Positions 8,663-37,051 of a DNA stretch of 64,000 nucleotides are shown piece after piece (position 1 is the first letter of the stretch; each line of letters begins with the position of its first letter). The translations under genes and the position numbers were made by a program. The notes under the pieces were generated by a model. The model searched no databases. It was not told the DNA's origin and worked only from the letters and a program-made list of their open reading frames with translations. The stretch lies in contig JAOUMU010000002.1 in NCBI GenBank assembly GCA_029881335.1, positions 1 through 64,000 of the forward strand, given 5' to 3'. The stretch is from Nitrospinota bacterium. Its GTDB lineage: Bacteria > Nitrospinota_A > UBA7883.

Positions 8663-8666
8663 GCCG

Positions 8667-15301: not shown

Positions 15302-17065
15302 TTGGCGATCTCATTGCGGAAGAGGCCAAAGGTTCATGCTATACTTGGCCCCATGATTTTTGCTCGCTTTCAATCTCCTTTTGCCAGAATAGTTTTCGCC
15401 GCGGTGTACATATTGCTGGCCTTCGCAGCCATTTTTGTGTCCAGGGATATCATGGAGAAGAACCGCCAGAAGGTGTTCTACCAAGTGAATCTGGAATGGC
15501 ATGGCCAGGGATTCTGGAATGGTCGCAAGGCTGTGGAGCTATCCTCCCCCAAGGAGATGCTGCCGGTGCAACTGCCAGGCCCGGCGGATGGATGGGCCGG
15601 CGGCGATAACAAGGAAATACGCATCAAGGCGCCTTTTTACCACAAGACGGAGTTCACGGTCCGGTTCCTGGAAAGCCATGAGGCTGCGCCCCCTTTCATC
15701 GAGGTGTGGGCCGATGATGCGAAAGTGGCGGAATTCCAGGTGGAAAAGGGAACAGGGTATCCAAGGATCCATTGGCCCAGGGAGGGGAAGACCTCCAAGG
15801 CCGGCTTCATCATACATTCCAGGAACCTCAAGAAGGGAACGATCATCACATTCAGGACCGTCTCCGGCTCCTGGGCTGCGCTGCAGACCATATCGGCCGC
15901 GGCCATGCCGGAGCGGTGGGAGAGTCTTGTGGCCTACGGGTGCTGCGCCCTGGTGGTCCTGATGACGCTTGTGTGGATCGCGCTCAAGATCACCCAAAGC
16001 GCGCTGAAGCCACGGCAAGTGATTTTCGCCGCTATTCTTATGGCAATTGGTGTTCTCTTTGGTCTGGCGACCGGGGAAGTGACGTTCCGTGCGCTGGATG
16101 TTTTGCCCAAGCCGATGCGCACCCAGCCTGTGCGGGATTTCAAGCTCTCCAGCAATCCGGTTATCCTGTATGAATACCGCCCGGGAATCAGGCAGGGGGA
16201 TATGACCCCGGAGGGCATAGAAAACAGGATATCGACAAACAGCGCCGGTTTCCGCGATATGGAAAGGTTGATCGACAAACCGGAGGGTACTTACCGGATA
16301 ATCGTAATCGGTGATTCCACAGCCGCAGGCAGCGGTGTGAAATCTGGGGAAGCGTTGTTCAACCGTATCCTGGAAAAGCAACTTAACAGGCCAGGAGAGT
16401 CCCGGAGTTATGAGGTTATCAACATGGGCGTGCATGGTTACCAGACCCTGCAGGAGGTGGAGACCTTGAGGGCCACGGGGCTGGCCTACCATCCGGACCT
16501 TGTCATTACGCTATTTTGCCACAACGATTTCCAGCTGAACGTGGACGGCAACACATACTACAACCTGCTGGCCAGCAATCCCGATTTCAAGTTCGAGAGC
16601 AGAACGCCGGGATTGCGCGATTGGTTTTTGAGCCATTCCCGTCTGGCGTTTGTGGTGTACCACCGGCTAATGGCGCTGATCCAGCCGCCCACCAGTTTTG
16701 ACGAGATTGTTAGCGAGTATAGGGAAAAATACCTCCACGGTAAAAGCACGGTGGAGGTGGGTATGGAGTCATTCTCCCGCATGGCCAAGGAGAGCGGATT
16801 CACCGCTGTGATGGCCATCCTGCCGGTCTTCGACCGCCCCTTCGACAAATACCGCCACGAATACCAGCACGACAGAGTGAAAAAGATAGTGGACAAGTTC
16901 GACAATATTGAGCTGTTGGACCTTAAGGATGGTTTTGCCCGGATCGACAACGACGCGTCGAAGTTCACCACTGACGGGCTGCACATGAATGAGGCTGGTC
17001 ACGCGGCGTTGGCCGATATACTGCGCGGGTGGATGAAGAATCGCCAAGGCTCGGGCGACAGGTAA
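15302..17065 (+). CDS. membrane-anchored SGNH/GDSL hydrolase family protein
   Basis: N-terminal TM helices are followed by a C-terminal domain with the IVIGDSTAAGSG block I and the DGLHMNEAGH block V. The start may instead be the in-frame ATG at 15353. Confidence 0.75.
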   Translation: MAISLRKRPKVHAILGPMIFARFQSPFARIVFAAVYILLAFAAIFVSRDIMEKNRQKVFYQVNLEWHGQGFWNGRKAVELSSPKEMLPVQLPGPADGWAGGDNKEIRIKAPFYHKTEFTVRFLESHEAAPPFIEVWADDAKVAEFQVEKGTGYPRIHWPREGKTSKAGFIIHSRNLKKGTIITFRTVSGSWAALQTISAAAMPERWESLVAYGCCALVVLMTLVWIALKITQSALKPRQVIFAAILMAIGVLFGLATGEVTFRALDVLPKPMRTQPVRDFKLSSNPVILYEYRPGIRQGDMTPEGIENRISTNSAGFRDMERLIDKPEGTYRIIVIGDSTAAGSGVKSGEALFNRILEKQLNRPGESRSYEVINMGVHGYQTLQEVETLRATGLAYHPDLVITLFCHNDFQLNVDGNTYYNLLASNPDFKFESRTPGLRDWFLSHSRLAFVVYHRLMALIQPPTSFDEIVSEYREKYLHGKSTVEVGMESFSRMAKESGFTAVMAILPVFDRPFDKYRHEYQHDRVKKIVDKFDNIELLDLKDGFARIDNDASKFTTDGLHMNEAGHAALADILRGWMKNRQGSGDR

Positions 17066-17077: not shown

Positions 17078-18154
17078 CTAGCTTAGCGGATCCTGCTGGT
17101 CGTATACCACCTGGTAGGAGAGTGGCCGGACCGAGTTGTTCTCCTTATTGGGGAGCAGCAGCTGTTGTCGCACGCGGGTCCATTGCAGATCCGGTTTCAA
17201 TTCCCTCATCTTCCCATCGGCCGGTGGCTTGGAATGCTCTGTATGGACATATACCACCTGAAACACCGCCACGCCGAACTCCTTCGTCCTGTGGATCAGA
17301 AACTTCCTGGCGAACTCAGGATCGCCTTTAGGGTGTCTTTCGATCTGTTCGATGGTGTTGTTGTCCAGCCGGATCAGCAGATGCTTGATGATCCCGTCCT
17401 CGCTGATCTTGGTCATGGTCCTGCTCTCCGAGGAGGAGACATACACCGTGCTCAAGTATCCGGAGTTGCGCAAAAACTGGGCGGCGAGCATGGCTGCCGT
17501 CCTGCGGCCAGAGGCGCTGTGGTGGAAGGAGTAATACTCGAACAACTTCTCCATCATCTCCTGTGCGTGCTGATCCCCTTTTTCATACAGATCCTTGGAG
17601 ATATAACGCAACTCCTTGCCCAGCGATTCGGCCGCGCTGTCTATCATCCAGTCCACCCGCACATGGAAGTGGCTCAGTGCAAAGCGGTTCTTGCTTTTGG
17701 ATGAGGTATCCCGCTGAATCAGCAGGGCGTAGTCAACTAGCATCAGGTCTCGCATCAGGGTGAAAAACCGAACGCTTTCGAAATACTTCATTTTGGCGTG
17801 GAACCTGTCGGCCAGGTTCAGCCCGGTGAGCTTCAGCTCTCCCAGGTTTTCCTTGGTCACCTTGTTGTGGGAGAAAAAACGGATGTACTTTTTGATATCG
17901 CTGTCCAGGGCTCGCTCCGTGAAGATCACGATGAAAGCGTTCATCAGCTTGTTTTCCATCTCCCCCACCTTGGCGCGGGGCTTAAGATCGCGCATGGAGA
18001 CAAACGGGTATGGTTCCCCCTTCTCCAGGGTATTGACGTATGAATCCACAAGAGCGTAGTCGATAAGGTATGAGTCCAGCTCGTTGCGCAATGCCTGATA
18101 CAGCAGGCGCACCTGCTTCTCTTCTTTGCTCAGATCATTTTTATGCAGCCACAT
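17078..18154 (-). CDS. hypothetical protein; contains an H-x5-R(T) loop reminiscent of a Cys-to-His substituted protein-tyrosine/dual-specificity phosphatase P-loop
   Basis: 358-aa ORF with a coherent codon pattern. The motif FHHSASGRRTAAMLAAQFL is similar to the PTP signature HCxAGxxR(S/T)G. No other confident similarity was recognised. Confidence 0.45.
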   Translation of the reverse strand: MWLHKNDLSKEEKQVRLLYQALRNELDSYLIDYALVDSYVNTLEKGEPYPFVSMRDLKPRAKVGEMENKLMNAFIVIFTERALDSDIKKYIRFFSHNKVTKENLGELKLTGLNLADRFHAKMKYFESVRFFTLMRDLMLVDYALLIQRDTSSKSKNRFALSHFHVRVDWMIDSAAESLGKELRYISKDLYEKGDQHAQEMMEKLFEYYSFHHSASGRRTAAMLAAQFLRNSGYLSTVYVSSSESRTMTKISEDGIIKHLLIRLDNNTIEQIERHPKGDPEFARKFLIHRTKEFGVAVFQVVYVHTEHSKPPADGKMRELKPDLQWTRVRQQLLLPNKENNSVRPLSYQVVYDQQDPLS

Positions 18155-18362: not shown

Positions 18363-20645
18363 ATGAAAGAGAGTCAGCTGAAGAAGTCCCTGGCCGAGCT
18401 GTTGGCCACCCCCCTGCCCATGCGCGAAATACTGGTCAAGCTCAAGATCAAGGGGGAAGAGAAGGTGGAGGTCAAGAGCCGAATCCGGGATCTTGCCCAG
18501 CAAGGTCACATCATCCGGCTGCGCGGCGCCCGCTATGGCCTGCCGGAAAAGATGGATCTGGTTATCGGCGTGGTGCAAGGCCATAGGGATGGGTATGGAT
18601 TCGTGATACCGGACGATCCGGACCAGGAAGACCTGTTTTTGAAAGCCTATAACTTTCACGAGGTGATGCATGGTGACCGTGTGGTGGCCAGGGTGGAGCG
18701 CCAGAAAGCTGGCGGCAAGAGAGAAGGAAGGGTCGTCAAAATCCTGGAGCGGGCCAATGAAACCATGTCCGGGGTTCTGGAGACCTTCCATGGCGGCGCC
18801 TATGTGGTCCCTTTCGAGCGAAGAATAGCCCAAGACATATTCATCCCCCCGGGAAAGGCCATGGAGGCCGCCGATGGACAGGCGGTAGTGGCTAGAATCA
18901 CTATCCACCCCTCAAAGACCAGGCAGGCCATGGGAGAGGTGATAGAGGTGCTGGGTGACCCGGAAGACCCACAGGTGGAGATCCAGCTCGCTTGTTCCAG
19001 GTTTCATATCAGGAACCAGTTCCCTCTGTCGGCGCTGGAGGAAGCAAAAAAGGCAACCCCCCCCGCCGGAGGGACATACGATGGGAGGATCGACTTTCGC
19101 GGCCGGCAGATAGTCACTATAGATGGCGAGACCGCCAAGGATTTCGACGACGCGGTAGAGGTCCAGGACCTGCCCGGCGGAGGCTGGGAGCTGGGTGTCC
19201 ACATCGCCGATGTTTCCCATTACGTGACGGAAGGATCCTCCCTGGACAAAGAGGCCGCCCTCCGTGGGACATCGGTCTACTTTCCTGGCACGGTGATCCC
19301 CATGCTCCCCTTCGAGCTCTCCAACGAAATCTGCTCCCTCAATCCGAGGACGGACCGGTTCACCCTAAGTTGCGTCATGCAAATATCCCCCGCAGGGGAG
19401 GTGACAAACTCACAGATCAGCGAGTCGGTGATAAGCACCGTGGAGCGAATGACATACACCGATGTAGCGGCGATCCTGGAAGAGGAGGAACCATCGGCCA
19501 AGGAGCGGTACGCCGACCTGGTCCCCATGTTCCGGCGAATGGGCGCCCTGGCGGAGGTGTTGAGGGAGAGGCGGCACGCTGATGGCGCGCTGGATTTCGA
19601 CCTGCCGGAGTCTGAAGTGATCCTGGACATCACCGGCCGCCCGGAGAATATCATCAGGGCCCAGCGCAATGTCGCCCACAAGCTGATAGAAGAGTTCATG
19701 CTGCTGGCCAACAAGACCGTGGCTGCCCACCTGCACGACCATGGGGCCAGGCTGCTAAGCCGGGTGCATGAACGACCCGACCCCATGAAGATCGATGTTT
19801 TTCTCAACTTCATCTCCGCTTTTGGCATCAGAACCACCGAACCGGAGAAGATAAACTCCAAGTGGCTGGCCAACATTCTGACGCGTTTTTCCGGCAGGCC
19901 GGAGCAGAAGCTGGTGACCCACGTCATGCTCCGCTCCATGAAACAGGCGCGTTATAGCGCAGAGGCCAGGGGCCATTTCGCCCTGGCGTTTGCCCATTAC
20001 GCCCATTTCACAAGCCCTATCAGGCGATACCCGGACCTGATCATCCACCGGACCATAAAAAGGGTGGCGAGAAAAGAAGCAGCCTCCCCTGGATGGGAGG
20101 AAGGCCTGGACAAGATCGCGGAGCATTGCTCCACCACCGAGCGCGCCGCGGAAGAAGCGGAGCGGGATATCGTGAAGCTGAAACAAACCCAGTACATGGC
20201 CAACAGGGTGGGGGAGGAGTTCGAGGGAATGATCTCCGGTGTGACCAACTTTGGCTTTTTCGTGGAGTTGGACGATCCGGCAGTGGAAGGCCTGGTGCGG
20301 ATTTCCACCATCGGGGACGACTACTATATTTACGATGAAACTGGCCACACTCTCACCGGCGACAGGAACGGAAAGGTGTTCCGCCTGGGAGACCCGGTAC
20401 GGGTGCTGGTGTCGGAAGTCTCCGTCCAGCGACGCCAGATAGATTTTGAGCTTATCGAAGCTTCTGGCGCCGCCCTGACAACCGGGCGAGGCAACAAGTC
20501 GCGAAGTGACAAGTCACGGGGCGACAAGTCACGGAGGGATAGGTCGAAAAGCACCAAGCCAGCCAGTGGCAGACCTCGCCCAGAGGGGGCCAAGGGCAAA
20601 GTGAAGGGAAAGGCTTCTGTAACGCGGAAAAAACGGCGGAAATGA
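18363..20645 (+). CDS. rnr: ribonuclease R
   Basis: 760 aa with cold-shock-like N-terminal domains, an RNB catalytic core, a C-terminal S1 domain and a Lys/Arg-rich tail. Confidence 0.95.
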   Translation: MKESQLKKSLAELLATPLPMREILVKLKIKGEEKVEVKSRIRDLAQQGHIIRLRGARYGLPEKMDLVIGVVQGHRDGYGFVIPDDPDQEDLFLKAYNFHEVMHGDRVVARVERQKAGGKREGRVVKILERANETMSGVLETFHGGAYVVPFERRIAQDIFIPPGKAMEAADGQAVVARITIHPSKTRQAMGEVIEVLGDPEDPQVEIQLACSRFHIRNQFPLSALEEAKKATPPAGGTYDGRIDFRGRQIVTIDGETAKDFDDAVEVQDLPGGGWELGVHIADVSHYVTEGSSLDKEAALRGTSVYFPGTVIPMLPFELSNEICSLNPRTDRFTLSCVMQISPAGEVTNSQISESVISTVERMTYTDVAAILEEEEPSAKERYADLVPMFRRMGALAEVLRERRHADGALDFDLPESEVILDITGRPENIIRAQRNVAHKLIEEFMLLANKTVAAHLHDHGARLLSRVHERPDPMKIDVFLNFISAFGIRTTEPEKINSKWLANILTRFSGRPEQKLVTHVMLRSMKQARYSAEARGHFALAFAHYAHFTSPIRRYPDLIIHRTIKRVARKEAASPGWEEGLDKIAEHCSTTERAAEEAERDIVKLKQTQYMANRVGEEFEGMISGVTNFGFFVELDDPAVEGLVRISTIGDDYYIYDETGHTLTGDRNGKVFRLGDPVRVLVSEVSVQRRQIDFELIEASGAALTTGRGNKSRSDKSRGDKSRRDRSKSTKPASGRPRPEGAKGKVKGKASVTRKKRRK

Positions 20646-21106
20646 ACCGTGCGGATAGAGTCATGATTGGTCCTAGCATCTATTCGGCTGGCAGGATGGC
20701 CGTTATCACGGTTTGCCTGGCGCTCTTCACTGTGTCCGCCATCAAGCAGGCCCTCACCCATCATTCCTTGTATGAAGCTTTTTTTAAACCGGATCGAAAA
20801 GGGGATAATTACAGCCCGATGCAACTCAAGGAAATAGCCCTTCGTCCAGTGTTGCCTGATTCCGGGGTGGAACTGGCCGGTTATTATTCCGACTTATACG
20901 AAGTGGGCTATAGCAAGTGGGGGAATTTTTTCAGGGCCCGATACGTGGCTCTCCCTCTCATACTCACGAGGTTCCACCCTAGCCAACCCCTGGTTTTGGT
21001 GGAGATGAGCTCCGCTGATGGAGTGAAGGAATTTTGCCTGAAATGGGGATATAAAGTCTCCAGGGAAGGCGCCCCGGGAGTGGCTCTGTTAGAAAAGGCG
21101 CCCTAA
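20642..21106 (+). CDS. hypothetical N-terminally TM-anchored small protein (module copy 1, A1)
   Basis: 154 aa. It is a paralogue of the gene at 22583..23026 (shared ...ARY(V/M)ALP(L/I)IL..F.P.Q.LV...M.SA.GV..FC..WGYK......G..LLEK.P). Confidence 0.6.
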   Translation: MNRADRVMIGPSIYSAGRMAVITVCLALFTVSAIKQALTHHSLYEAFFKPDRKGDNYSPMQLKEIALRPVLPDSGVELAGYYSDLYEVGYSKWGNFFRARYVALPLILTRFHPSQPLVLVEMSSADGVKEFCLKWGYKVSREGAPGVALLEKAP

Positions 21107-21108
21107 CC

Positions 21109-22578
21109 ATGCCGCAGGCCAGTATCTTAGTTGGGATTGTTACCCCAGCGCTGTTCGGGTTTTTCCTTACGAGCATTCTGCTTCGGCCAGAAAGGGGGGT
21201 GGTGTCCTTTCTCGTCCGGCTATCCCTGGGCTGGGGCGTCGGTGTCGGTTGCTTTTCCATTCTTCTCTTTTTTCTGATGATATCGCCTATCAATCCGCGT
21301 TTTTTACCGTGGATCGAGGTCGCCGCCGCCGGTTGCCTGGTAGCGGCCTACTTTTTATCGATCCGGGGCAGGGGTGGATATGACGAGGATTTTTCCGCTC
21401 CATCGCGGCGGCAGGGCTGGATAGCGCTTATGGCGGGAGTGGTGTTTATTATTGTCATGGCCGCGGCGGCATATGTGTTCGCCGCCAAAGTGGCGATTAC
21501 TCCTGAAGGCGAGTGGGATGCATGGATGACGTGGAACCTTAGGGCCAAAGCGTTTTATTATTTCCAGGATAACTGGGACAAGCCCATAAATTACATCTAT
21601 GGCTGGACCCACCTTGACTATCCCCTTCTTCTGCCTCTGTCTGTCACCCGGTTATGGATGCTGAGTCAATCCGCTTCACACTCCATCGAGCCGATCATTA
21701 TAGCTTTTCTTTTTACATTCTCCCTGCCACTTATGGTTTTTTCCTTCATCTGCTCATTGCGCGGAGCCGCCCTGGGCCTGGCGGCTGGCGGCGCGCTACT
21801 CTCGGCGGAGACTGTCTATCTGCTGGGGGGATGGTTGTACGCGGATCTACCCCTGACATTCTATATAACCGCCTCTGTAGGCCTGGCCGCCATGGCCACT
21901 GAAAAGCCGGAACGGGCTGGAAGGACTTGGGCCCTGGCGGGGCTATGCGCCGGGCTTGCCGCATGGACCAAGAACGAGGGAATGTTGTTCCTGGTGGTGA
22001 TTATTGGCGCCGTGGGCGCCGTGACCCTGGCCAGGAGTGGGTGGCGCCAGGCGGCGCGCAGGCTGGGAATGATCGGCGTTGGGATCGCCGCGCCTACGAT
22101 CACACTAATTGCTTTCAAACTCGCCATACCCTCCCAGAATTTCCTGATACGCTCCAATTCCTTGGAGAGGATCTTAGACAGCCTCACCGATCCGGAGCGC
22201 TATGCTTCCATAGTCATCGGGGTTACATATGAGATATTTCATTACGGTGGATTTGTGGTGGCCGGCAATCACTTCTCGGCTCCCGTGCTGGCCCTGATAT
22301 TTCTGGCGGCCTGGGGTCCACGTAAGGGGTCTATGCGTCTGGAAGCGATCCAGATATCCCTGGTTTGCCTGGCAGCCATGCTGGCCGGATACTCTACTGT
22401 ATATCTTTTATCCCCCCTGGATATCAATTTCCAGATACTTACAACTGTGTCCAGGTTGCTGACCCATGTTTGGCCGCTGTTTCTGCTGTGCGTAATGTTA
22501 GCGGCCTCTAGGGACCAGGAGAATGAGTCCACCGCTCCCGTCCCAGCTGAAGAATCGGCGAAGAACCGGGATCCATGA
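21109..22578 (+). CDS. polytopic membrane protein, GT-C-fold glycosyltransferase-like (module copy 1, B1)
   Basis: 489 aa with more than 10 predicted TM helices. It is a paralogue of 23029..24519 (shared WTKNEGMLF, YEIFHYGG, FLAAWG blocks). Confidence 0.6.
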   Translation: MPQASILVGIVTPALFGFFLTSILLRPERGVVSFLVRLSLGWGVGVGCFSILLFFLMISPINPRFLPWIEVAAAGCLVAAYFLSIRGRGGYDEDFSAPSRRQGWIALMAGVVFIIVMAAAAYVFAAKVAITPEGEWDAWMTWNLRAKAFYYFQDNWDKPINYIYGWTHLDYPLLLPLSVTRLWMLSQSASHSIEPIIIAFLFTFSLPLMVFSFICSLRGAALGLAAGGALLSAETVYLLGGWLYADLPLTFYITASVGLAAMATEKPERAGRTWALAGLCAGLAAWTKNEGMLFLVVIIGAVGAVTLARSGWRQAARRLGMIGVGIAAPTITLIAFKLAIPSQNFLIRSNSLERILDSLTDPERYASIVIGVTYEIFHYGGFVVAGNHFSAPVLALIFLAAWGPRKGSMRLEAIQISLVCLAAMLAGYSTVYLLSPLDINFQILTTVSRLLTHVWPLFLLCVMLAASRDQENESTAPVPAEESAKNRDP

Positions 22579-22582
22579 AATC

Positions 22583-23026
22583 ATGAGCAACGCCCCATTC
22601 CTGCAACAGGTCAGGGCTCTGGCCGTTGGATTATGCCTTGCGCTAATGGCCCTTTCCGCCGGACAAATGCTGGTGGATCATCATGCCATTATGCAAAGAG
22701 TTTTCAGTTCGGCATCTGGTGAAAATAGCATTGATCCGGTGATGGTCAAGGGGCGAAGGCTTCTGCCGGTGCTGCCGGTTTCCGCAGATGAGCCGGTAGG
22801 TTATGTCACGGATTTCGAGGAGCCAGGATTCCGAAAACAGGAAAATTTTTATATAGCTCGATACATGGCTCTGCCGATTATCCTGAAAATGTTCAAGCCT
22901 GGGCAGCGCCTGGTTGTGGCGGATATGCGCTCGGCAAATGGTGTGGAGATATTCTGCCAAACATGGGGCTACAAGGCGATTAAAGCGGAAGAAAGCGGCG
23001 CCACTCTGCTGGAAAAGGTTCCCTGA
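22583..23026 (+). CDS. hypothetical N-terminally TM-anchored small protein (module copy 2, A2)
   Basis: The start is set at the ATG at 22583, just after the B1 stop at 22578. The ORF-track start at 22523 overlaps B1. Confidence 0.6.
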   Translation: MSNAPFLQQVRALAVGLCLALMALSAGQMLVDHHAIMQRVFSSASGENSIDPVMVKGRRLLPVLPVSADEPVGYVTDFEEPGFRKQENFYIARYMALPIILKMFKPGQRLVVADMRSANGVEIFCQTWGYKAIKAEESGATLLEKVP

Positions 23027-23028
23027 CT

Positions 23029-24519
23029 ATGACGAGTCTGTATATAGCGCCCGGATTCATGGTTTCGGCGTTGATCGGGTTTTTTCTTGTAAGCCTGCTA
23101 CTGACATCCAGGGAGGGAGAAATGTCCTTGATAATCAGGCTATCCATGGGCTGGGGTGTCGGGACGGGCCTCTTGTCCATCCTCTTTTTTTTCTGGATGA
23201 CCATTTTCCAATCAAGCAGCCTTTTGCCCATGGTTGAGGCAGCGGTCACATTAGCCCTCGGTATATTTTATTTCAGATCCAGGGGCAAGTGGGCGCCCCT
23301 GCCGGGAGCCCATTCTCCAGCTACACAGGAAAGCAGGGCCATCACCCTCTTCGCCGGTGTGGTGTCGCTTTTTCTTTTGGCCTCCGCGGTTTATGTATTT
23401 CTGGTCAATTTGGCTATACTGCCCCATGGAAGATGGGACGCATGGATGATCTGGAGCCTGCGTGCAAAAGCCCTGAGCTATTTCCACGACGACTGGAGGA
23501 TGGCATTCGACCCTTCATATGGCTGGACCCACGCGGGATATCCGCTCTTGCTGCCAGCGTCCATGGCCAGAGTGGCGATCCACTACAACCTATCCGGTTG
23601 TCTTCCCATGAAAGTGTTCGAGCCCATTATTCCAGCCATTACTTCGTTTTTGTTCACCTTTTCGGTTCCGGCTCTGGTTTTCTCTTTTATTTTCCATTTG
23701 CGAGGGGCGGCCCTGGCCCTGGCCGCAAGCGCTATGCTGCTATCTGCGCAGATGATCTGCTTGCAGGGCTCCTCACTATATGCCGATCTGCCTTTGGCGT
23801 TTTACATGCTGGCGGCCGTGGGGCTGGCGGCAATCGCCATGGAGGGGAAAAAGGAGAATGGGAGGACATGGGCGCTGGCGGGTTTCTGCGCTGGCCTTGC
23901 CGCATGGACCAAAAACGAGGGGATGCTATTTGTGTTGGCGCTTATATGGGCCGTGGTGTGCGCATCTTGGCTCAAGGGTGGTTTTCGGCGAGCCTTGCCA
24001 AGGCTGGGGATGTTGGCCTTGGGATTGGCCCCGCCAGTGTTTACCATCATTGCCTTTAAAATTGCCATACCCGCCCATAATTACCTGATATCCGCCAACA
24101 CTGTGGAAATGATTTTGGCCAAGGCTCTTGATCCGGATCGATACCTCTTTATACTTTTCGGCATGGTATACGAAATATTTCACTATGGCGGAGTAATTTT
24201 TGCCGGATACACATTACCTGCGCCGGCCCTGGCCCTGATGTTTCTGGCCGCATGGGGAACCAGGGAAAGAGCCTTGCGTCAGGAGCCGGTCATGATGATC
24301 ATGCTCTCCCTGACGGCAATGCTGATCGGATACACTGCGGTTTACATCATCACGCCCATGGGGCTTCAATATCAGTTCACCACATCCGTGGCGCGGTTGA
24401 TCACCCAGGTGTGGCCGATTTTTGTTATGCTGGTGACACTAGCCGCCCGGCATGGGGATGGAGAGGGTAGCGCCGCGGCTTTTACCGAACTGGCCGACAA
24501 TGGAGGCGAAGATGGCTGA
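23029..24519 (+). CDS. polytopic membrane protein, GT-C-fold glycosyltransferase-like (module copy 2, B2)
   Basis: 496 aa, co-linear with B1 over its full length. Confidence 0.6.
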   Translation: MTSLYIAPGFMVSALIGFFLVSLLLTSREGEMSLIIRLSMGWGVGTGLLSILFFFWMTIFQSSSLLPMVEAAVTLALGIFYFRSRGKWAPLPGAHSPATQESRAITLFAGVVSLFLLASAVYVFLVNLAILPHGRWDAWMIWSLRAKALSYFHDDWRMAFDPSYGWTHAGYPLLLPASMARVAIHYNLSGCLPMKVFEPIIPAITSFLFTFSVPALVFSFIFHLRGAALALAASAMLLSAQMICLQGSSLYADLPLAFYMLAAVGLAAIAMEGKKENGRTWALAGFCAGLAAWTKNEGMLFVLALIWAVVCASWLKGGFRRALPRLGMLALGLAPPVFTIIAFKIAIPAHNYLISANTVEMILAKALDPDRYLFILFGMVYEIFHYGGVIFAGYTLPAPALALMFLAAWGTRERALRQEPVMMIMLSLTAMLIGYTAVYIITPMGLQYQFTTSVARLITQVWPIFVMLVTLAARHGDGEGSAAAFTELADNGGEDG

Positions 24520-25315
24520 TATATTTGAAAACAGGGTTCTGGGCAGAACCGGTTTTAATGTACACCCTCTGGGCGTGGGCGCAAGCTATGGAGTGGGAGC
24601 CCAGGGAATCCGGGAGGCTTTCGACCGGGGAGTGAACTACTTTTACTGGGCGTGGCGCCGCAGAGGCGGAATGGCCGATGGAATACGTGAAATCGCCAAA
24701 TCCGACCGGGAGAAGGTCTTCATTGTAGTCACCAGCCTGGCGCCCAGCGAGTTCATGATCAGACGAAGCGTTGAAGGAGCCCTGCGCGCACTGGGAACCG
24801 ACTACCTTGACGGACTTCAGTTCTATGTCCGCAAGGACCACCCTCCCTCCATGGGGTGGTGGATGGACGCGGCGCTGAAGCTGAAAGAAGAGGGAAAAAT
24901 CCGCCATATCTGCTCCACTGGCCACCACCGACCAAACTTCGCCAAATTCCACAGCGAGCCCTTCATGGATATCTTCCATGTGCGATACAACGCTGTTCAC
25001 CGTGGAGCGGAGACAGAAGTGTTCCCCCAACTGCCGGAAAAGGGAAGCCCGGCCCGGCCAGGTGTGGTGGCATTCACCGTCACCTGCTGGAGAAAGCTCA
25101 TCAACGCATCGCCGAACAGGATCGGCGGGCTGCCAGTCCCCACCGCCGGAGATTGCTACCGCTTCGCCATGACCAACCGGAACATAGACGTCACCATCTG
25201 CGGTCCCGCTGACGAGGAGCAGATGCGCCACGCCCTGGACGCAGTGGAGAAAGGGCCTATGACGGAAGATGAGATGGAATGGATGCGAAAGGTGGGCGCT
25301 CTTCTGTATGGATAA
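24512..25315 (+). CDS. aldo/keto reductase family oxidoreductase
   Basis: The start is placed at MADIFENRVLGRTGFNVHPLGVGASYG (ATG 24512, overlapping the B2 stop). This is the AKR N-terminal signature. Confidence 0.8.
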   Translation: MADIFENRVLGRTGFNVHPLGVGASYGVGAQGIREAFDRGVNYFYWAWRRRGGMADGIREIAKSDREKVFIVVTSLAPSEFMIRRSVEGALRALGTDYLDGLQFYVRKDHPPSMGWWMDAALKLKEEGKIRHICSTGHHRPNFAKFHSEPFMDIFHVRYNAVHRGAETEVFPQLPEKGSPARPGVVAFTVTCWRKLINASPNRIGGLPVPTAGDCYRFAMTNRNIDVTICGPADEEQMRHALDAVEKGPMTEDEMEWMRKVGALLYG

Positions 25316-25764: not shown

Positions 25765-25840
25765 GCCCCCGTAGCTCAGGGGATAGAGCGCCGGATTCCT
25801 AATCCGTAGGTCGCAGGTTCAAATCCTGCCGGGGGTACCA
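25765..25840 (+). tRNA. tRNA-Arg (anticodon CCT) with encoded CCA
   Basis: Manual cloverleaf. Acceptor GCCCCCG / CGGGGGT (G1·U72). D-arm GCTC-AGGGGATA-GAGC. Anticodon arm CCGGA-TTCCTAA-TCCGT (U33, anticodon CCT, A37). T-arm GCAGG-TTCAAAT-CCTGC. Discriminator A73, then CCA. Confidence 0.8.
25795..25838 (+). repeat. attL: 44-bp core identical to 45277..45320 (anticodon loop to acceptor 3' end of tRNA-Arg)
   Basis: The exact 44/44 match ATTCCTAATCCGTAGGTCGCAGGTTCAAATCCTGCCGGGGGTAC was read directly. Confidence 0.9.
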
Positions 25841-26068
25841 TTAAATCAATGGGTTATCGGGTATAGCAAAAACCGGGTTATGGCCTAGTAAGCACCTGGT
25901 AAGCAGTACGTGGCAATTTCAAGCGTAAATTCAGATAAATTTCCATAGCCCTTTATATATCTAAACCGCCACTTTTGCCCTCCACCACGTCCATTGAAAC
26001 AATTTTTTTCCCCACCAGATCAAAAAAATTCCCGGCTCAAATATGGCCGGGAAGGGTATTTTTAAAGT

Positions 26069-26500
26069 TTAATCATCACCGTTATATCCCCAGACTTGAC
26101 GCCTTATTTGGTTCAATTCTTCCGGCGTTATTGTCCCAAGCTCAGGCTTTACCGGCTCAAGCTTTGTCGGCGCGTCCAGGCCGAGCAACTTGGCTTGACG
26201 CTCCATGGCCTTTAACATCAGACTGGCGGCCTTCCAATCCCCTTCCTTGGCTTTCTTGTAGCTTATGCCGATAATGGACTCCAGACGCAGAAGGGCGATA
26301 TCCCGCTCCATGATCGCTGTTTCATGGGTATCCGCGCGAATTGCCTCCAGCTCGCTTTTAATGTACTTGTGGACCATCACGGCGGAAACACCCAGCCGCT
26401 GGCCAATTTTCGCCAAGGTCAGCCCCTCCTTGCGAAGCTGGACCGCTTCCCTTTTCCGCTCCAGGGATATTACCTGCGTCTTACCTGTAATTTTTTTCAT
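26069..26500 (-). CDS. HTH DNA-binding protein (phage-type regulator or terminase-small-subunit-like)
   Basis: 143 aa. The LTLAKIGQRLGVSAVMVHKYIK helix-turn-helix is followed by a coiled-coil region. Confidence 0.5.
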   Translation of the reverse strand: MKKITGKTQVISLERKREAVQLRKEGLTLAKIGQRLGVSAVMVHKYIKSELEAIRADTHETAIMERDIALLRLESIIGISYKKAKEGDWKAASLMLKAMERQAKLLGLDAPTKLEPVKPELGTITPEELNQIRRQVWGYNGDD

Positions 26501-26790
26501 TTTTAACCTCTATGGTTAACCTATTATAACATATTTCATGTAGAATATGCTTAATTTGCTTAGGTTTTCTATTTGCCTTCCGTTTACCCTCGCTTAAAGT
26601 GTTCTATGGCTCCGAAAACCCGCCTGCAAGGCACGCTTCGCTCTGAAGGCCTTGAGGGCGGAACTTCTCCGCCATCTACGAACACTGCGAGGGACGAGAC
26701 GGAAACAGGTTAAATCAATATCCTTGTTAAAAATAGGTATTTAGAATATCCTTTCTTAGGGTGAGCGCTAAAGAAAGGATCGTTGCGTAA

Positions 26791-27966
26791 TTGAAAACCT
26801 TAAGAAAGGGAAAAAGAACCGGAGAGTTTGTTCTCAACGCCGTTGGTGGTGAACAGGTTCGCGCCTATCTGCCGCCACCACTGCCGCCAGAACCATCGCT
26901 CAATCTGGAAAAACTCTATGGTCTGATGGAAGACGCCAACAGGTCATTAGGACGGCTTGACGGCATCGCCTCAATCCTGCCGGACACTCCGTTATTCCTC
27001 TACATGTATGTCCGCAAGGAAGCGCTGCTTTCTTCCCAGATCGAAGGAACACAATCGTCCTTGTCTGACCTCTTGCTTTTTGAAAGCGATGAGGCTCCCG
27101 GAGCGCCGCTCGATGACGTCCAGGAAGTCTCCAATTACGTCGCCGCCATGAATTACGGGCTGGAGCGATTACGCGGCGGGTTTCCGTTATCGCTTCGGTT
27201 GATAAAAGAAATCCATGGAATCCTGCTTGCGATGGGGAGGGGGGCGACCAAGCAACCTGGTGAATTCCGGAGAAGTCAAAACTGGATCGGTGGCACACGT
27301 CCGGGCAATGCAATCTATGTTCCGCCGCCGCCCGACAAGGTGCTCGGTTGCATGGGTGAACTCGAAAAATTTATCTATGAGGAAGAGTCAAAGCTTCCAA
27401 CGCTAATCAAGGCGGCCCTGATCCATGTACAGTTTGAAAGCATTCACCCCTTCCTGGATGGTAACGGACGTTTGGGCCGGTTGCTCATCACTTTCCTTTT
27501 GTGCGCGGAAGGGGTTTTAAGCGAACCGATTCTTTATCTCAGTCTCTTTTTTAAAACGCATCGTCGCCGGTATTACGATCTTCTGCAAGACGTGCGTGAA
27601 GAAGGCGACTGGGAAGGGTGGCTGGAATTCTTTCTAACCGGCGTGAAAGAAACATCAGATCAGGCGGCGGAAGCGGCCCGCCGAATTCTTGCCGTTTTCG
27701 AGCGGGATCGGCGCAAGATCGAGGACCTTGGCCGACCAACCGCATCCGCGCTCAGAGTGCATCAATATCTGCAATCAAAACCGATTCTGTCTGTACCTGT
27801 CGCGACCAAGGCACTGGGCCTGACCGCTCCTACGGTCAGGAAATCCGTTGAGCATCTTCTGGAGCTGGGAGTCATGCGAGAGATCACCGGAAAAAAACGA
27901 GGCAAGTTATTCGTCTACGACGATTATCTCAACCTCCTCAATGAAGGAACGGAGCCGTTGCGATAA
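26791..27966 (+). CDS. Fic/DOC family protein (AMPylase-type fold) with a C-terminal winged-helix domain
   Basis: 391 aa with the canonical Fic motif HPFLDGNGRLGRLL. Its stop overlaps the SNF2 gene start (TAATG). Confidence 0.9.
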   Translation: MKTLRKGKRTGEFVLNAVGGEQVRAYLPPPLPPEPSLNLEKLYGLMEDANRSLGRLDGIASILPDTPLFLYMYVRKEALLSSQIEGTQSSLSDLLLFESDEAPGAPLDDVQEVSNYVAAMNYGLERLRGGFPLSLRLIKEIHGILLAMGRGATKQPGEFRRSQNWIGGTRPGNAIYVPPPPDKVLGCMGELEKFIYEEESKLPTLIKAALIHVQFESIHPFLDGNGRLGRLLITFLLCAEGVLSEPILYLSLFFKTHRRRYYDLLQDVREEGDWEGWLEFFLTGVKETSDQAAEAARRILAVFERDRRKIEDLGRPTASALRVHQYLQSKPILSVPVATKALGLTAPTVRKSVEHLLELGVMREITGKKRGKLFVYDDYLNLLNEGTEPLR

Positions 27967-30900
27967 TGCTACTCGATAACAAAAAGAACGGAAAGGTGGG
28001 TGACAAACTACGAACTCACTTAGCCAATGGCTCAAAGCTATCAATCATATCCGGTCTGTTTTCGATCTACGGTTTTGAATCTCTGAAAAAGGAACTGCAA
28101 AATATAGACGCTTTACGCCTTGTCTTGTCACAAAATCCAATAAACAGTAATTTGCAGGAAGCGGGAATTGCCTCCCTATCCGGAGACAGGTTTGAGCTAC
28201 GGTTCAAGAACCAGCTCAATCAGGCACAAGTTGCTAAAGAATGCGCTTCCTGGCTTAAAGAAAAAGCTGAAATACGTATAGCAACAAACCCCATGGCCAT
28301 AAGCCAAAATCTCTTTCACGTTCAAGAGGGGAATGGGGAAGCAATAGCCATTCAAGGCAGTTCCGAGTTCACCAGCACCGGTTTTGGATACACGGAAACT
28401 GACCGGTACCACATGAATACCTGCTCAACGGGCAAGGCAAGTACGATAGCAATGCTGGAGTGGTTTGAAGCCATCTGGGATGATCCATCGGCTGTTCAGG
28501 ATGCAAAGGAGCTACTTTTACGTCAGCTTTCCAACCTGACAAAGGATCATTCTCCTGAATTTATCTACTTTCTTACCCTCTACAACCTGTTTAAGGACTT
28601 CATCGAAGACATTGACGAAGACAACATTATCAAGGCCAAAACGGGATTCAAGGAAACCATCGTTTGGAAAAAGCTCTATAAATTTCAGCGCGACGGAGTC
28701 CTGGGTGCAATAGACAAAATCGAAAAATACAATGGTTGCATTATCGCAGACAGCGTGGGCTTGGGTAAAACTTTCGAGGCGTTGGCCGTTATCAAATATT
28801 ACGAGTTACGCAATGATCGCGTGCTTGTGCTATGCCCCAAAAAGCTAAGGGATAATTGGACGGTCTATACAGTAAACGACAAACGTAATCTGCTCGCCAA
28901 GGATCGGTTCAACTACGACGTTCTCAACCATACTGACCTGACCCGCCTGCAAGGCCGCTCTGGCGAAATCAATCTCGAAACCCTGAACTGGGGTAACTAC
29001 GATCTGGTTGTGATTGATGAGTCTCATAATTTCCGCAACAGCAGCTCATCAAGGGAAGGTCTTACCCGTTATTCCCGCCTGATGAATGAAATTATCCTAT
29101 CTGGCGTTAAAACCAAAGTCCTTATGCTTTCAGCCACTCCTGTTAATAGCCGAATGAACGACCTGAAGAATCAGGTCGCTTTTATTGCTGAAGGACTAGA
29201 TTTTGCCTACAGCGACTTCGGCATTGTAAGTATTGAGCAGACCTTGAAGAAAGCGCAAACCCGGTTTAATCAATGGCTCAAGCTGGACGATGAAAGCCGG
29301 TCGGTCGAAGGATTGCTTGACAGTATGAACTTCGATTACTTTAAGCTTCTGGACATTTTGACAATTGCCCGGTCGCGCAAGCACATTGAAAAATATTACG
29401 ACATAGCGGAGGTAGGCGATTTTCCCGAACGTCTAAAACCGATAAACATTAAGGAAGATATCGATAAGGGAGGGAAGTTTCCGCCCTTGGAAGAGATCAA
29501 CCGGAAGATTCGAAAGCTAAATCTCAGCGCTTATTCCCCACTTAAATATGTGCGAACAGAAAAGCGAGAGGAGTATAACCGCAAATACGATATCGAAGTA
29601 AAAGGCGGATCAATCTTTCGACAGGTTCACCGAGAACAAAGTCTGATCCACCTTATGCGAGTGAACCTGCTCAAACGCATGGAAAGCTCGATAAATTCAT
29701 TCAGCCTCACTTTGGGAAAGCTTCAGGGAGAGGTGGATCGCCTGATGGAAAAACTTGAAAACCACAGTAGCGAAGACCTCGAGGAGCTGGGGATCGAGGA
29801 TATTGAAGTCGATGAACCTGAATTTGACCCCTTCCTTATTGGCAAAAAAGTAAAGGTGCTAATCAAGGATTTGGACGAAGTTCGTTGGAAACAGGACCTT
29901 GAGGATGACCATGACAAACTGACCGAACTGCTATCAGAAGCACGAGACATCGAGGCGAAGCGCGATGCCAAGCTATACCGGTTACGCGCAATGATCGAGA
30001 ATAAATGCCAAAATCCGATCAATGACGGCAACCGCAAGATCATCGTCTTTACAGCTTTTACCGATACCGCCAATTATCTCTATGAACATCTTGCCGAGTG
30101 GGCAAAGGAGACCTTGGGCGTGTATTCGGCTAAAATCACAGGAAGCGGCACCAACAAGACTACAATGCCAGGCATGGGGAGCAACTTCGATACTCTTCTC
30201 GCTTCCTTTTCTCCAATCTCGAAGGAGCGGAGCAAAATAGACGAAGGGGCAACTGATGAAATTGACCTCCTGATCGCCACGGATTGCATATCTGAAGGGC
30301 AAAACCTTCAGGATTGCGATTATCTGATCAATTACGATATACACTGGAATCCAGTCCGCATCATTCAACGCTTTGGCCGCATAGACCGTCTTGGCTCAAA
30401 GAATAAGGTTATCCAACTCGTCAACTTCTGGCCAAACATGGAGCTGGATGAATATATCAACCTGGAAGCGCGGGTAAGCGGCCGTATGGTTCTTCTCGAT
30501 ATTTCCGCAACTGGCGAGGAAAATGTAATCGAGCAGGACACCACTGGCAAGATGAACGATCTTGAGTATCGGAGGAAACAGCTTCATCAGCTCAAGGATA
30601 CTGTCATCGATCTGGAAGATATATCGGGTGGCGTTTCAATCACCGATCTTACCCTAAACGATTTCCGGATGGACCTGTCCGCATTCATGAAGGAGCACTT
30701 GGGCGAATTGGAGCAATCACCCACCGGGCTTTATGCGGCCACGACGCTAGATTCCGAACTGCAAAAGGAAGAGCTGGAACCTGGTGTGATCTTTTGCCTG
30801 AAAAACATTGGCAAGACGGTTGCAGAGGAGGAAGGCTACGCGCTTGCTCCCTATTACATGGTCTACATCACCGACGATGGCCAGGTGAAATACACCTTCA

Positions 30901-31184
30901 CCCAGTCAAAGAGGATTCTTGACGTTCTGAAAAAGCATGGCCATGGGCAAAAACAAGCAGATGCCAAGGCCATTGAGCGCATGAACAAACGAACCAGAAA
31001 CGGCAAAGATATGAGCCATTACCGTTCGCTTTTGGAAACCGCCGTCAGTAGTATCGTAGGCAAGTCAGAAGAGAAGGGCGTAGAAAGCCTGTTCAGTCGT
31101 GGGGGAACCAACCTGACCAAGGAGAGTTTTCAGGGGATGGAAGACTTCGAGGTCATCAGCTACATGATTGTGAATACGCCATGA
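27966..31184 (+). CDS. SNF2-family helicase/ATPase with an N-terminal degenerate PLD-like domain
   Basis: 1072 aa. SNF2 motifs are ADSVGLGKTFEA (I), DLVVIDESHNFRN (II) and C-terminal QRFGRIDRLGS (VI). The N-terminal 150 aa carry an HKD-like segment HVQEGNGEAIAIQGSSEFT, with HxK degraded to HxQ. Confidence 0.85.
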   Translation: MLLDNKKNGKVGDKLRTHLANGSKLSIISGLFSIYGFESLKKELQNIDALRLVLSQNPINSNLQEAGIASLSGDRFELRFKNQLNQAQVAKECASWLKEKAEIRIATNPMAISQNLFHVQEGNGEAIAIQGSSEFTSTGFGYTETDRYHMNTCSTGKASTIAMLEWFEAIWDDPSAVQDAKELLLRQLSNLTKDHSPEFIYFLTLYNLFKDFIEDIDEDNIIKAKTGFKETIVWKKLYKFQRDGVLGAIDKIEKYNGCIIADSVGLGKTFEALAVIKYYELRNDRVLVLCPKKLRDNWTVYTVNDKRNLLAKDRFNYDVLNHTDLTRLQGRSGEINLETLNWGNYDLVVIDESHNFRNSSSSREGLTRYSRLMNEIILSGVKTKVLMLSATPVNSRMNDLKNQVAFIAEGLDFAYSDFGIVSIEQTLKKAQTRFNQWLKLDDESRSVEGLLDSMNFDYFKLLDILTIARSRKHIEKYYDIAEVGDFPERLKPINIKEDIDKGGKFPPLEEINRKIRKLNLSAYSPLKYVRTEKREEYNRKYDIEVKGGSIFRQVHREQSLIHLMRVNLLKRMESSINSFSLTLGKLQGEVDRLMEKLENHSSEDLEELGIEDIEVDEPEFDPFLIGKKVKVLIKDLDEVRWKQDLEDDHDKLTELLSEARDIEAKRDAKLYRLRAMIENKCQNPINDGNRKIIVFTAFTDTANYLYEHLAEWAKETLGVYSAKITGSGTNKTTMPGMGSNFDTLLASFSPISKERSKIDEGATDEIDLLIATDCISEGQNLQDCDYLINYDIHWNPVRIIQRFGRIDRLGSKNKVIQLVNFWPNMELDEYINLEARVSGRMVLLDISATGEENVIEQDTTGKMNDLEYRRKQLHQLKDTVIDLEDISGGVSITDLTLNDFRMDLSAFMKEHLGELEQSPTGLYAATTLDSELQKEELEPGVIFCLKNIGKTVAEEEGYALAPYYMVYITDDGQVKYTFTQSKRILDVLKKHGHGQKQADAKAIERMNKRTRNGKDMSHYRSLLETAVSSIVGKSEEKGVESLFSRGGTNLTKESFQGMEDFEVISYMIVNTP

Positions 31185-31939: not shown

Positions 31940-31943
31940 GGGG

Positions 31944-36823: not shown

Positions 36824-36835
36824 GGGATATTAGAA

Positions 36836-37051
36836 ATGATGGAAGATAATAAGCCACTCAATGTGCAAGTCACCTCCAAAGAAACACCCACTCTTTTAAA
36901 TACTGACCGCCTTCGGTTGCACTTGAAAGAAGATGGATTGGCAGTGGCTTTACTTGACGTATGGCTTGATGATCCAAAACTCGATAATCAGGCGCGTATG
37001 CTTCAAATTATCGATAGTTATCATAAAAAAAAGCAAGTGAACGATGGCTAG
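36836..37051 (+). CDS. small hypothetical protein (71 aa), translationally coupled to the downstream ABC ATPase
   Basis: It starts 13 bp after the res stop. Its stop overlaps the ATPase start (ATGGCTAG). Confidence 0.5.
   Translation: MMEDNKPLNVQVTSKETPTLLNTDRLRLHLKEDGLAVALLDVWLDDPKLDNQARMLQIIDSYHKKKQVNDG

Follow-up and report, generated by a model that had tools for sequence, protein, structure and literature searches.

Tandem two-gene modules encoding candidate two-subunit GT-C glycosyltransferases in a Nitrospinota bacterium

Described systems and the locus

In the eukaryotic oligosaccharyltransferase (OST), the catalytic subunit is a GT-C protein accompanied by small membrane-anchored subunits bearing lumenal domains. 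Bacterial PglB acts alone as far as we know and, to our knowledge, ArnT, PglB and the Gtr enzymes, the bacterial GT-C enzymes investigated to date, all act as single polypeptides. ArnT (GT83) and the PMT_2 family (PF13231) are polytopic inner-membrane GT-C proteins with an Asp in the first external loop (EL1) after the canonical TM1 and a presumed polyprenyl-phosphate-sugar donor, features that recur in the B proteins described below. Four motifs of the clan have been delineated, namely the EL1 Asp, M2 (H/K..Y.P in EL1), M4 (K-E in EL3) and M7 (R-Y before a late TM helix) (PMC7801869). The three-component systems of periplasmic glycosylation, as outlined in PMC11127046 citing Mann & Whitfield 2016, consist of a GtrA flippase, a GtrB polyprenyl-phosphate-sugar synthase and a Gtr* GT-C enzyme. 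A small membrane protein can also assist a glycosyltransferase of another type, as with the DUF2304 activator GacJ that complexes with and stimulates the GT2 enzyme GacI (bioRxiv 10.1101/180810).

The window analysed is a 64-kb stretch of a Nitrospinota contig (JAOUMU010000002.1, positions 1 to 64,000). Two pairs of genes, each encoding a small protein (A) and a large membrane protein (B), are found in it between rnr and akr:

18363..20645, + strand: rnr, RNase R with RNB, CSD2 and S1 domains; flanking gene, context only
20642..21106, + strand: A1, ORF of 154 aa
21109..22578, + strand: B1, ORF of 489 aa, polytopic, with about 14 helices
22583..23026, + strand: A2, 147 aa, paralogue of A1
23029..24519, + strand: B2, 496 aa, paralogue of B1
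24512..25315, + strand: akr, aldo/keto reductase-like, start at 24512 likely; flanking gene, context only

From rnr to akr, the successive junctions measure -4, +2, +4, +2 and -8 nt. The ATG of A1 overlaps the rnr stop codon by 4 nt (ATGA), A2 starts 4 nt past the B1 stop and the likely akr start and the B2 stop overlap by 8 nt. With such spacing the six genes are tightly packed and probably form a single operon. The longest ORF of A2 reaches back to 22523, and the ATG at 22583 is preferred because the NCBI protein (P0124) and the orthologues agree on it. Parts of this order are found in related contigs: rnr-A1-B1 in L002, B1-A2 in L088, where an A2 orthologue of 70% identity follows the B1 orthologue, and A2-B2-akr in L001 and L089, with 85% identity for akr.

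A preliminary description of the locus regarded A1/B1 and A2/B2 as co-linear paralogue pairs derived from an old duplication, and both statements are borne out. By BLASTP, B1 and B2 share 49% identity over 481 aa (E=1e-146) and A1 and A2 share 42% over 137 aa (E=3e-37), similarities far beyond chance, and all the shared blocks that had been quoted are present (WTKNEGMLF, YEIFHYGG and FLAAWG in B; ARY(V/M)ALP.IL and GV(K/E)(E/I)FC..WGYK in A). The duplication is old: the identity of B1 and B2 at third codon positions is 0.40, where composition alone predicts 0.27, and each copy has its own orthologues in related contigs, such as the B2 orthologue P0003 of L001 (63% identity).

The B proteins within the GT-C clan

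Neither B1 nor B2 matches any Pfam or NCBIfam model, even with the cut-off relaxed to E<=10, and a profile of the B family finds nothing at E<=10 among PDB sequences. The resemblance to ArnT/PMT glycosyltransferases noticed beforehand is nevertheless upheld by the relatives of B, by fold matches and by invariant clan motifs. Among 60 family members, 46 match PMT_2 and 22 match PMT (PF02366), and relatives at about 30% identity to B score 32-40 bits with PMT_2, whose gathering threshold is 26.1. Thus, the profile search connects the relatives with curated families, whereas B1 and B2 themselves fall short of the PMT_2 and PMT thresholds; both are outliers of the family, and their membership in PMT_2/PMT (CAZy GT39/GT83-like) follows from transitive homology only.

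The AlphaFold2 (AF2) model of B1 is confident (pLDDT 91.3, pTM 0.93) and all-helical with about 14 helices. It has no soluble domain and displays three additional N-terminal TM helices (residues 1-85), whereas ArnT, whose donor is undecaprenyl-phosphate-L-Ara4N and whose acceptor is lipid A, carries a C-terminal periplasmic domain and STT3 a C-terminal domain that B lacks. Cytoplasmic loops are limited to 1-14 residues and the conserved external loops are long, the first of them (residues 131-192) holding the short helices 136-151 and 174-186. In a Foldseek search of the PDB, the best matches of this model are STT3 (8pn9_A, ranked first), ArnT (5f15 and 5ezm), ALG3, AglB, AftA and Pmt1, with probabilities up to 1.0; the matches are weak in terms of E-value (at least 0.055) and TM-score (0.3-0.43). 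Ranks 1-13 are all occupied by GT-C enzymes, and transporters appear from rank 14 with probabilities <=0.08.

Residues D137 (in PxGxWDAW), K288, E290 and R364 are invariant in 60/60 family members. The full set of invariant positions, retained in B2 as well, includes D137, Y171, P172, W286-G291, K337, R364, R449 and P456, while H168 is kept in 58/60 members and Y365 in 48/60; B1 shows the family consensus at every conserved position. By inspection, SHKSYRP among the motifs of PMC7801869 corresponds to THxDYP in B, KET to TKNEG and ERxxY to (E)RY, so that the H/K..YP-like and K-x-E motifs and the carrier-phosphate-binding Arg of ArnT/PMT_2 have counterparts in B. Judging from its position in the motif, D137 would be the equivalent of ArnT D55 and Pmt1 D77. 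The following residue distinguishes the family: A138 is found in 60/60 members, D-A replacing the DE/DD of ArnT/PMT_2 and its second acidic residue. Compared with the PMT enzymes (GT39), which belong to the same clan and carry a lumenal MIR domain of beta-trefoil fold and a DE motif, B has no MIR domain, shows D-A and is about half the size.

The neighbourhood of related loci points in the same direction. A GT2 similar to polyprenyl-phosphate-sugar synthases (GtrB/ArnC/AglJ-like) is encoded in the fetched flanks of 24/87 loci, mostly directly adjoining the A-B module. The window itself speaks against such a donor supply, as no homologue of the GT2 of locus L010 was detected by phmmer among all ORFs >=60 aa of the window, and Pfam analysis of ten selected neighbouring ORFs in the window revealed neither a GtrA-like flippase nor a GtrB-like GT2. 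As in Gtr systems, B would be a GT-C enzyme whose lipid-phosphate sugar presumably comes from a small GT2, a dependence suggested by its fold, its phosphate-binding motifs and the GT2 genes near related loci. The conserved unit differs, being A-B here instead of GT2-flippase-GT-C: GtrA is absent from the frequent neighbour families of related loci, and A accompanies B even at loci with no GT2 nearby. Moreover, GtrA is a 4-TM protein, whereas A is single-pass with a soluble domain.

That B is some other polytopic membrane protein, a transporter or a polymerase with only superficial similarity to PMT_2, would account for the missing direct matches of B1 and B2 in Pfam, NCBIfam and PDB sequences and for Foldseek E-values above 0.05. 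This explanation is highly improbable given that relatives pass the PMT_2 gathering threshold, that thirteen GT-C enzymes outrank the first transporter, that the four functional motifs of the clan are invariant and that donor-synthase-like GT2 genes flank related modules. Taken together, the data place B in the PMT_2/ArnT clan as a divergent GT-C glycosyltransferase.

The A proteins and their pairing with B

The A proteins consist of a single N-terminal TM helix followed by an alpha/beta domain of about 95 aa. In the AF2 model of A1 (pLDDT 87.5), helix 13-48 precedes elements in the order alpha-beta-alpha-beta-beta-alpha-beta-beta. A belongs to no curated family: A1 and A2 have no Pfam or NCBIfam match at E<=10, and 41 members compared with Pfam yield only scattered single spurious matches. 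The best hit of the A profile among PDB sequences is MotB over 34 residues (E=0.05), and the best Foldseek match of the fold in the PDB reaches E=0.09 with TM<0.3, the periplasmic domain of ArnT not being matched. We know of no described counterpart of A for ArnT. The domain probably faces the periplasm, the flanks of the TM helix having a net charge of +1.9 on the N-terminal side and +0.2 on the other; since K+R counts are equal on both sides (2.3 vs 2.4), the orientation is uncertain.

The presumption that A is an accessory subunit receives strong genomic support. In 87/88 independent genome loci, the ORF immediately preceding B is matched by an iterated A profile. Of the 93 profile matches among 3980 ORFs of these loci, 91 are the ORF abutting B; one of the two others precedes a second B on the opposite strand and the last one (L039 3758..4438) immediately precedes the A gene of L039. 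In metagenome contigs, an A-like ORF accompanies 57/63 B genes, and the 60 A matches among 3291 ORFs all lie beside B. At one genome locus and at six metagenome loci, the profile detected no A-like ORF beside B. Almost everywhere, A and B are joined by a stop/start overlap or a 2-nt spacer, and their distance matrices are correlated (r=0.83, Mantel p=0.001). The pairing is not a local feature and extends over roughly a dozen phyla or more; this distribution, like the missing soluble domain and the three added N-terminal helices of B, had escaped the preliminary description. A is therefore probably a dedicated partner of B, and this gene context suggests that the two proteins associate physically.

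A might instead be a chaperone, an assembly factor or a regulator acting transiently on B (insertion, stabilization, gating). The gene pairing fits such a role equally well and the only conserved residues of A (G80, Y81, D84, Y101, P105 and G146) do not look catalytic. GacJ, a small membrane protein that merely stimulates its enzyme and whose gene adjoins that of GacI as A adjoins B, provides a precedent, although it differs from A by its three TM helices and its cytoplasmic GT2 partner, and A matches no DUF2304. A transient role remains unlikely, because the overlaps and 2-nt spacers suggest stoichiometric co-production and because A co-duplicates and co-diverges with B, as fits a cognate, specific contact. 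A stable subunit recalls the OST, whose catalytic STT3 is also the top fold match of B; this is an analogy, as A has no sequence or fold relation to OST subunits, none of which was matched in the PDB.

A could also be the acceptor substrate glycosylated by B, like pilins encoded beside their O-oligosaccharyltransferases. Its gene immediately precedes that of the transferase, and its long N-terminal hydrophobic helix preceding a small alpha/beta domain looks superficially pilin-like. The class III signal peptide of type IV pilins (G/FTLxE, the prepilin-peptidase motif) is found in 0/73 A sequences, as is the lipobox (0/73), and no pilin is present among the Foldseek PDB matches, so that A was rejected as a type IV pilin-like protein. 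Conservation exceeds 68% in no Ser/Thr column, and a gene order that is translationally coupled and fixed across phyla typifies subunits more than enzyme-substrate pairs, which makes the substrate role improbable.

Two modules and their probable functions

The preliminary description had further deduced two substrate specificities from the two diverged copies. This proposal gains some support from the first external loop, where N143S, D170G and W183A (B1 numbering) are found only in B2 and its orthologue (2/60 members), the three positions being otherwise near-invariant in the family; the difference in specificity itself is deduced from these changes. A1-B1 keeps the ancestral active-site loop and A2-B2 has a remodelled one, so that the acceptors or the sugars most likely differ between the two pairs.

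The loss of D170, N143 and W183 could alternatively mean that B2 is a catalytically impaired paralogue, either a pseudo-enzyme or a regulatory copy. There is little to recommend this interpretation, as B2 retains every fully invariant residue and persists alongside its own A2 in related contigs (63% and 60% identity), which indicates purifying selection on both proteins. B1 and B2 might also form an obligate heterodimer, each with its own A. PMT-family enzymes are dimeric, Pmt1-Pmt2 being a heterodimer according to PDB entry 6p25, and paralogous catalytic subunits occur together in both cases; here the two pairs are probably co-transcribed and their tandem arrangement is kept in relatives. A single A-B pair is present in 82/88 genome loci, so that heterodimerization is no requirement of the family, and the substrate-loop changes of B2 fit an altered specificity at least as well. 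Pmt1-Pmt2 also differs in that each B is paired with its own A. An obligate heterodimer is unlikely. The A+B unit underwent an independent tandem duplication in a Thermoguttaceae MAG; Desulfobacterales MAGs contain tandem pairs as well.

The reading retained, which we consider fairly likely, is that the two ancient tandem modules encode two A-B glycosyltransferases acting in the periplasm, dependent on polyprenyl-phosphate sugars and differing in specificity. B would be the catalytic subunit, transferring a sugar from the lipid carrier to an acceptor on the periplasmic side of the inner membrane. D137, in the first external loop, would have a catalytic role; K288/E290, K337, R364 and R449 would serve to bind either the carrier phosphate or a metal. 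A, translationally coupled and single-pass, would most likely provide in trans the extramembrane domain of B, for acceptor recognition or stabilization.

A wider proposal is more tentative: A-B may represent a widespread, so far unrecognized class of two-subunit bacterial GT-C enzymes, in which a catalytic subunit devoid of a soluble domain, whether by loss or from the outset, is supplied with one in trans by the new alpha/beta fold of A, which would set acceptor specificity for an envelope glycoconjugate. The phyla named for this putative class are Desulfobacterota, Acidobacteriota, Gemmatimonadota, Planctomycetota, Nitrospinota and others, mostly uncultured.

A near-obligate small partner would add an architectural variant to the GT-C enzymes, in which the enzyme is split and receives its soluble domain in trans. 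It would also offer a handle on specificity, since cognate A and B are duplicated as pairs and diverge in step. The family definition covers a few hundred or more "hypothetical" proteins, namely A and a divergent B clade missed by current models, and it points to an envelope modification in lineages that are abundant in the environment and poorly cultured.

Gene pairs, probable operon and genomic setting

Four forward-strand reading frames fill the interval between the gene for RNase R (rnr, 18363..20645, +) and that for an aldo/keto reductase (akr, 24512..25315, +), both flanking genes being identified from Pfam. They form two tandem pairs of a small protein with a single transmembrane (TM) helix (A) and a large polytopic membrane protein (B):

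20642..21106, + strand, A1, ORF of 154 aa
21109..22578, + strand, B1, ORF of 489 aa
22583..23026, + strand, A2, ORF of 147 aa
23029..24519, + strand, B2, ORF of 496 aa

The preliminary description had read A1/B1 and A2/B2 as co-linear paralogue pairs, and the paralogy is established by BLASTP, with 49% identity over 481 residues for B1/B2 (E=1e-146) and 42% over 137 residues for A1/A2 (E=3e-37); every shared sequence block that it quoted is present. In the deposited annotation of the contig, which belongs to a Nitrospinota MAG, all four are 'hypothetical protein' (OEZ32_00565..00580), with shorter starts for A1 (147 aa) and B1 (458 aa). The longer starts of the preliminary description are favoured and the NCBI ones less likely, since the family conserves the first B1 helix (G17 in 57/60 aligned members), which is modelled with a pLDDT of about 90. 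Junctions are short or overlapping (rnr/A1 -4 nt, ATGA; A1/B1 +2; B1/A2 +4; A2/B2 +2; B2/akr -8), so that RNase R-A1-B1-A2-B2-aldo/keto reductase probably constitutes a single tightly packed operon.

The duplication is old, as had been proposed from its divergence. The third-codon-position identity of B1 and B2 (0.40) compares with 0.27 expected from base composition, synonymous sites being near saturation, and each copy has separate orthologues in related contigs. One contig (L002) carries RNase R (83% identity) with orthologues of A1 (63%) and B1 (59%), another (L088) orthologues of B1 (75%) and, behind it, of A2 (70% to A2, 43% to A1), and two others (L001 and L089) orthologues of A2 (60%) and B2 (63%) with the aldo/keto reductase (85%). 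The whole arrangement is thus older than the split of these relatives. Across the wider family, B1 and B2 are closer to one another (~50% identity) than to any sequence beyond their clade (about 33%), and the duplication therefore arose within this lineage. RNase R and aldo/keto reductase are Nitrospinota-specific neighbours. Where their synteny is kept (L001, L002, L089), the flanks are 83-85% identical and A and B 59-63%, so the envelope genes evolve much faster than their housekeeping operon neighbours.

Two genes upstream of the module lies a gene for a GDSL/SGNH protein, which may be another envelope-modifying enzyme. This and two putative genes from a mechanical ORF list are:

15302..17065, + strand, protein of 587 aa, hydrophobic segments at the N-terminus, GDSL/SGNH hydrolase domain at the C-terminus (Pfam Lipase_GDSL_2, E=7e-16)
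17078..18154, - strand, putative 358-aa ORF, no Pfam match
8529..9365, + strand, putative 278-aa ORF, no Pfam match

Downstream of this probable operon, a region of about 20 kb with lower GC (0.43-0.50), within 25765..45074, looks like an integrative element inserted at a tRNA and carrying a helicase/DUF4391/methylase/restriction defence cluster:

25765..25840, tRNA-Arg(CCT), immediately 3' of akr
26791..27966, Fic
27966..31184, SNF2-like helicase
31181..31939, DUF4391
31944..33821, N6/N4 DNA methylase
33818..36823, type III res helicase with endonuclease domain
37044..39566, SMC/AAA_23 ATPase
40058..42148, - strand, DUF3987
43616..43688, - strand, int-alpA RNA, island end
43812..45074, - strand, tyrosine integrase, island end

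Family, fold and motifs of B

No Pfam or NCBIfam model matched B1 or B2, even at E<=10, and a 60-sequence profile of the B family matched none of the PDB sequences at the same threshold. The family is large, with at least 413 proteins in a word-indexed search and at least 563 loci in species-representative genomes. Among the 60 aligned members, PMT_2 is matched by 46 and PMT by 22, the PMT_2 scores of these relatives (32-40 bits, gathering threshold 26.1) covering residues ~180-330. The AF2 model of B1 (pLDDT 91.3, pTM 0.93) consists entirely of helices, about 14 of them in the membrane, and lacks a soluble domain. Its top 13 Foldseek matches in the PDB are GT-C enzymes (STT3, ArnT, ALG3, AglB, AftA, Pmt1), with weak statistics (best E=0.055, TM 0.3-0.43); transporters appear from rank 14 onward, with a probability of at most 0.08. 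In the Pfam PMT alignment, the canonical GT-C TM1 corresponds to helix 100-130 of B1, and B therefore begins with three additional helices (residues 1-85); a conserved LGxGxGxxS motif lies within them.

The functional motifs of the GT-C/PMT clan comprise an Asp in the first external loop (EL1), 'SHKSYRP', 'KET' and 'ERxxY' (PMC7801869). All have counterparts in B, matched by inspection rather than by structural superposition. The EL1 Asp is D137, conserved in 60/60 sequences and followed by Ala instead of Asp/Glu; 'SHKSYRP' corresponds to T-H168-x-D170-Y171-P172, 'KET' to T-K288-N-E290-G (likewise 60/60) and 'ERxxY' to (E)-R364-Y365. Beyond these, K337 and R449 are invariant. The suggested resemblance to ArnT/PMT-type transferases is upheld by the Pfam matches of the relatives and the retained motifs and, more weakly, by the fold: B is very likely a GT-C transferase, a divergent one within the PMT_2/ArnT clan. 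A bona fide ArnT is ruled out by the absence of the periplasmic domain, and a PMT proper by that of the MIR domain.

B1 follows the family consensus at every near-invariant position, whereas B2 and its orthologue in L001 (P0003), alone among the 60 sequences, are changed at three such positions, all in EL1:

N143S, EL1 of B2; N in 57/60
D170G, EL1 of B2; D in 56/60
W183A, EL1 of B2; W in 58/60

EL1 contributes to the acceptor site as well as the donor site of GT-C enzymes (PMC7801869), so these substitutions would fit a changed specificity of the A2-B2 pair. Alternatively, B2 could have lost activity or could heterodimerise with B1; all fully invariant family residues are kept in B2.

The A family and its pairing with B

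Neither A1 nor A2 matched Pfam or NCBIfam. Single-sequence and narrow-profile searches returned a handful of relatives, and an exhaustive HMM search with a four-sequence profile 5 representatives. The clade restriction first suggested by this narrow profile was overturned once it was broadened with the ORFs upstream of distant B homologues. Two such homologues (P0005 and P0007) have their starts overlapped by 4 nt by a 151-aa ORF devoid of Pfam matches, which aligns with A over its full length, though weakly. In the 88 loci considered, an ORF of 130-190 aa ends at the B start of nearly every homologue, and iterating the A profile over these upstream ORFs raised the hits from 17 to 91, in 87 of the 88 loci.

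Specificity was checked by running the final profile on all 3980 ORFs (>=60 aa) of these loci. It matched 93, including 91 that abut B; one of the other two precedes a second, opposite-strand B gene, and the other (L039 3758..4438) is immediately upstream of the A gene in its locus. The pairing was replicated in an independent set of 80 metagenome contigs. In 63 of their B genes the upstream sequence is long enough to judge, and 57 of these have an A-like ORF directly upstream; the profile hit 60 of 3291 ORFs, every one of them beside a B. A-B adjacency and stop/start coupling are nearly universal. Distance matrices of A and B are correlated over 85 pairs (Pearson 0.83, Mantel p=0.001), which demonstrates co-inheritance and would agree with co-evolution, without being proof of contact.

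Tandem A-B-A-B arrangements also occur elsewhere, as recent, mutually nearest paralogues in a Thermoguttaceae MAG (L047 2115..6293; 67% and 52% identity) and as old paralogues in two Desulfobacterales MAGs (L012 and L016 4582..8425). A Brocadiia locus (L060 1028..4292) is A-B-B, its second B lacking a preceding A. No A-B fusion protein was found, with one possible weak exception in a Planctomycetaceae MAG (L030, about 4690..4900), where no separate A gene was detected and a short A-like segment, TM plus first helix, appears to be joined in frame to the B N-terminus (weak hit, E=0.004); it may be a degenerate fusion.

Family members from the protein database all measure 112-165 aa, and none has a name or a Pfam domain, a Pfam scan of 41 members giving nothing but scattered single spurious matches. 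Against PDB sequences, the sole match of the A profile was MotB (34 residues, E=0.05). The family motifs are VGY(V/Y)(T/S)D, (T/A)(Q/R)YxLAPxx(V/L), LVxGNF and DFGxGxxL, with G80, Y101 and P105 invariant. In the AF2 model (pLDDT 87.5), a long helix 13-48 (TM about 19-39) precedes an a-b-a-b-b-a-b-b domain for which Foldseek found nothing significant in the PDB (best E=0.09, TM<0.3). A prepilin motif, a lipobox and a conserved Ser/Thr are all absent from the family, and A was accordingly rejected as a pilin, lipoprotein or substrate.

The TM flanks carry net charges of +1.9 (N-terminal) and +0.2 (C-terminal) with equal K+R counts, so that a positive-inside analysis by these counts is equivocal. 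An N-in/C-out orientation with a periplasmic domain is favoured and moderately determined, one further reason being that the cytoplasmic loops of B have only 1-14 residues and its conserved loops are external. That A is a dedicated partner subunit of B is mildly favoured.

Proposed sugar donor and mechanism, and known systems

The sole recurrent neighbour of the module is a ~230-aa GT2 glycosyltransferase, the next downstream gene in 17/70 loci and present in the fetched flanks of 24/87, mostly directly adjacent. Its best full-length NCBIfam similarities, all below equivalog cut-offs, are to polyprenyl-phosphate-sugar synthases (AglJ, PpgS, ArnC, dolichyl-phosphate hexose transferase). In three-component systems, the GT-C enzyme needs a lipid-phosphate sugar donor (PMC11127046), and by analogy the adjoining GT2 would fit such a need. 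A GtrA-like flippase is not among the recurrent neighbours at related loci, and the 64-kb window contains no such GT2. The genes upstream of the module vary from locus to locus, HflX (8/74) being a lineage-specific synteny; with GT2 alone recurring downstream, a conserved functional neighbourhood was rejected. Among non-recurrent neighbours at L005 (7545..8759) and L006 (9263..10579), a radical SAM gene separates B from GT2 in one distant locus and the other has, close by and in opposite orientation, a Kdo transferase-like gene (Glycos_transf_N); a lipid A acyltransferase and KdsA are neighbours in single loci. These are weak hints of a link to LPS.

In ArnT, PMT and STT3, the extramembrane domain is part of the same polypeptide. 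We propose that B would take a sugar carried on a polyprenyl phosphate and transfer it to a periplasmic or envelope acceptor, and that A, produced stoichiometrically with B and anchored beside it in a complex, would supply the extramembrane domain that those enzymes carry in cis, contributing to acceptor recognition or stability. The window would then encode two such enzymes differing in specificity, a proposal that we consider moderately likely as a whole.

The closest systems include ArnT/PMT_2 enzymes, of which B is a divergent relative, Gtr-type three-component systems, Pmt1-Pmt2 dimers, and OST complexes with their single-pass accessory subunits. To our knowledge, none of these, nor GacI-GacJ, has an A-like partner. 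In GacI-GacJ, also among the closest, GacJ is a small membrane activator, but of a GT2 (bioRxiv 10.1101/180810). No description of the A-B pair was found in the literature searched, where absence does not mean that it was never described. A is an uncurated family and B a divergent representative of an established superfamily; their conserved architecture appears to be so far undescribed, and the pairing, both robust and widespread, can be tested directly.
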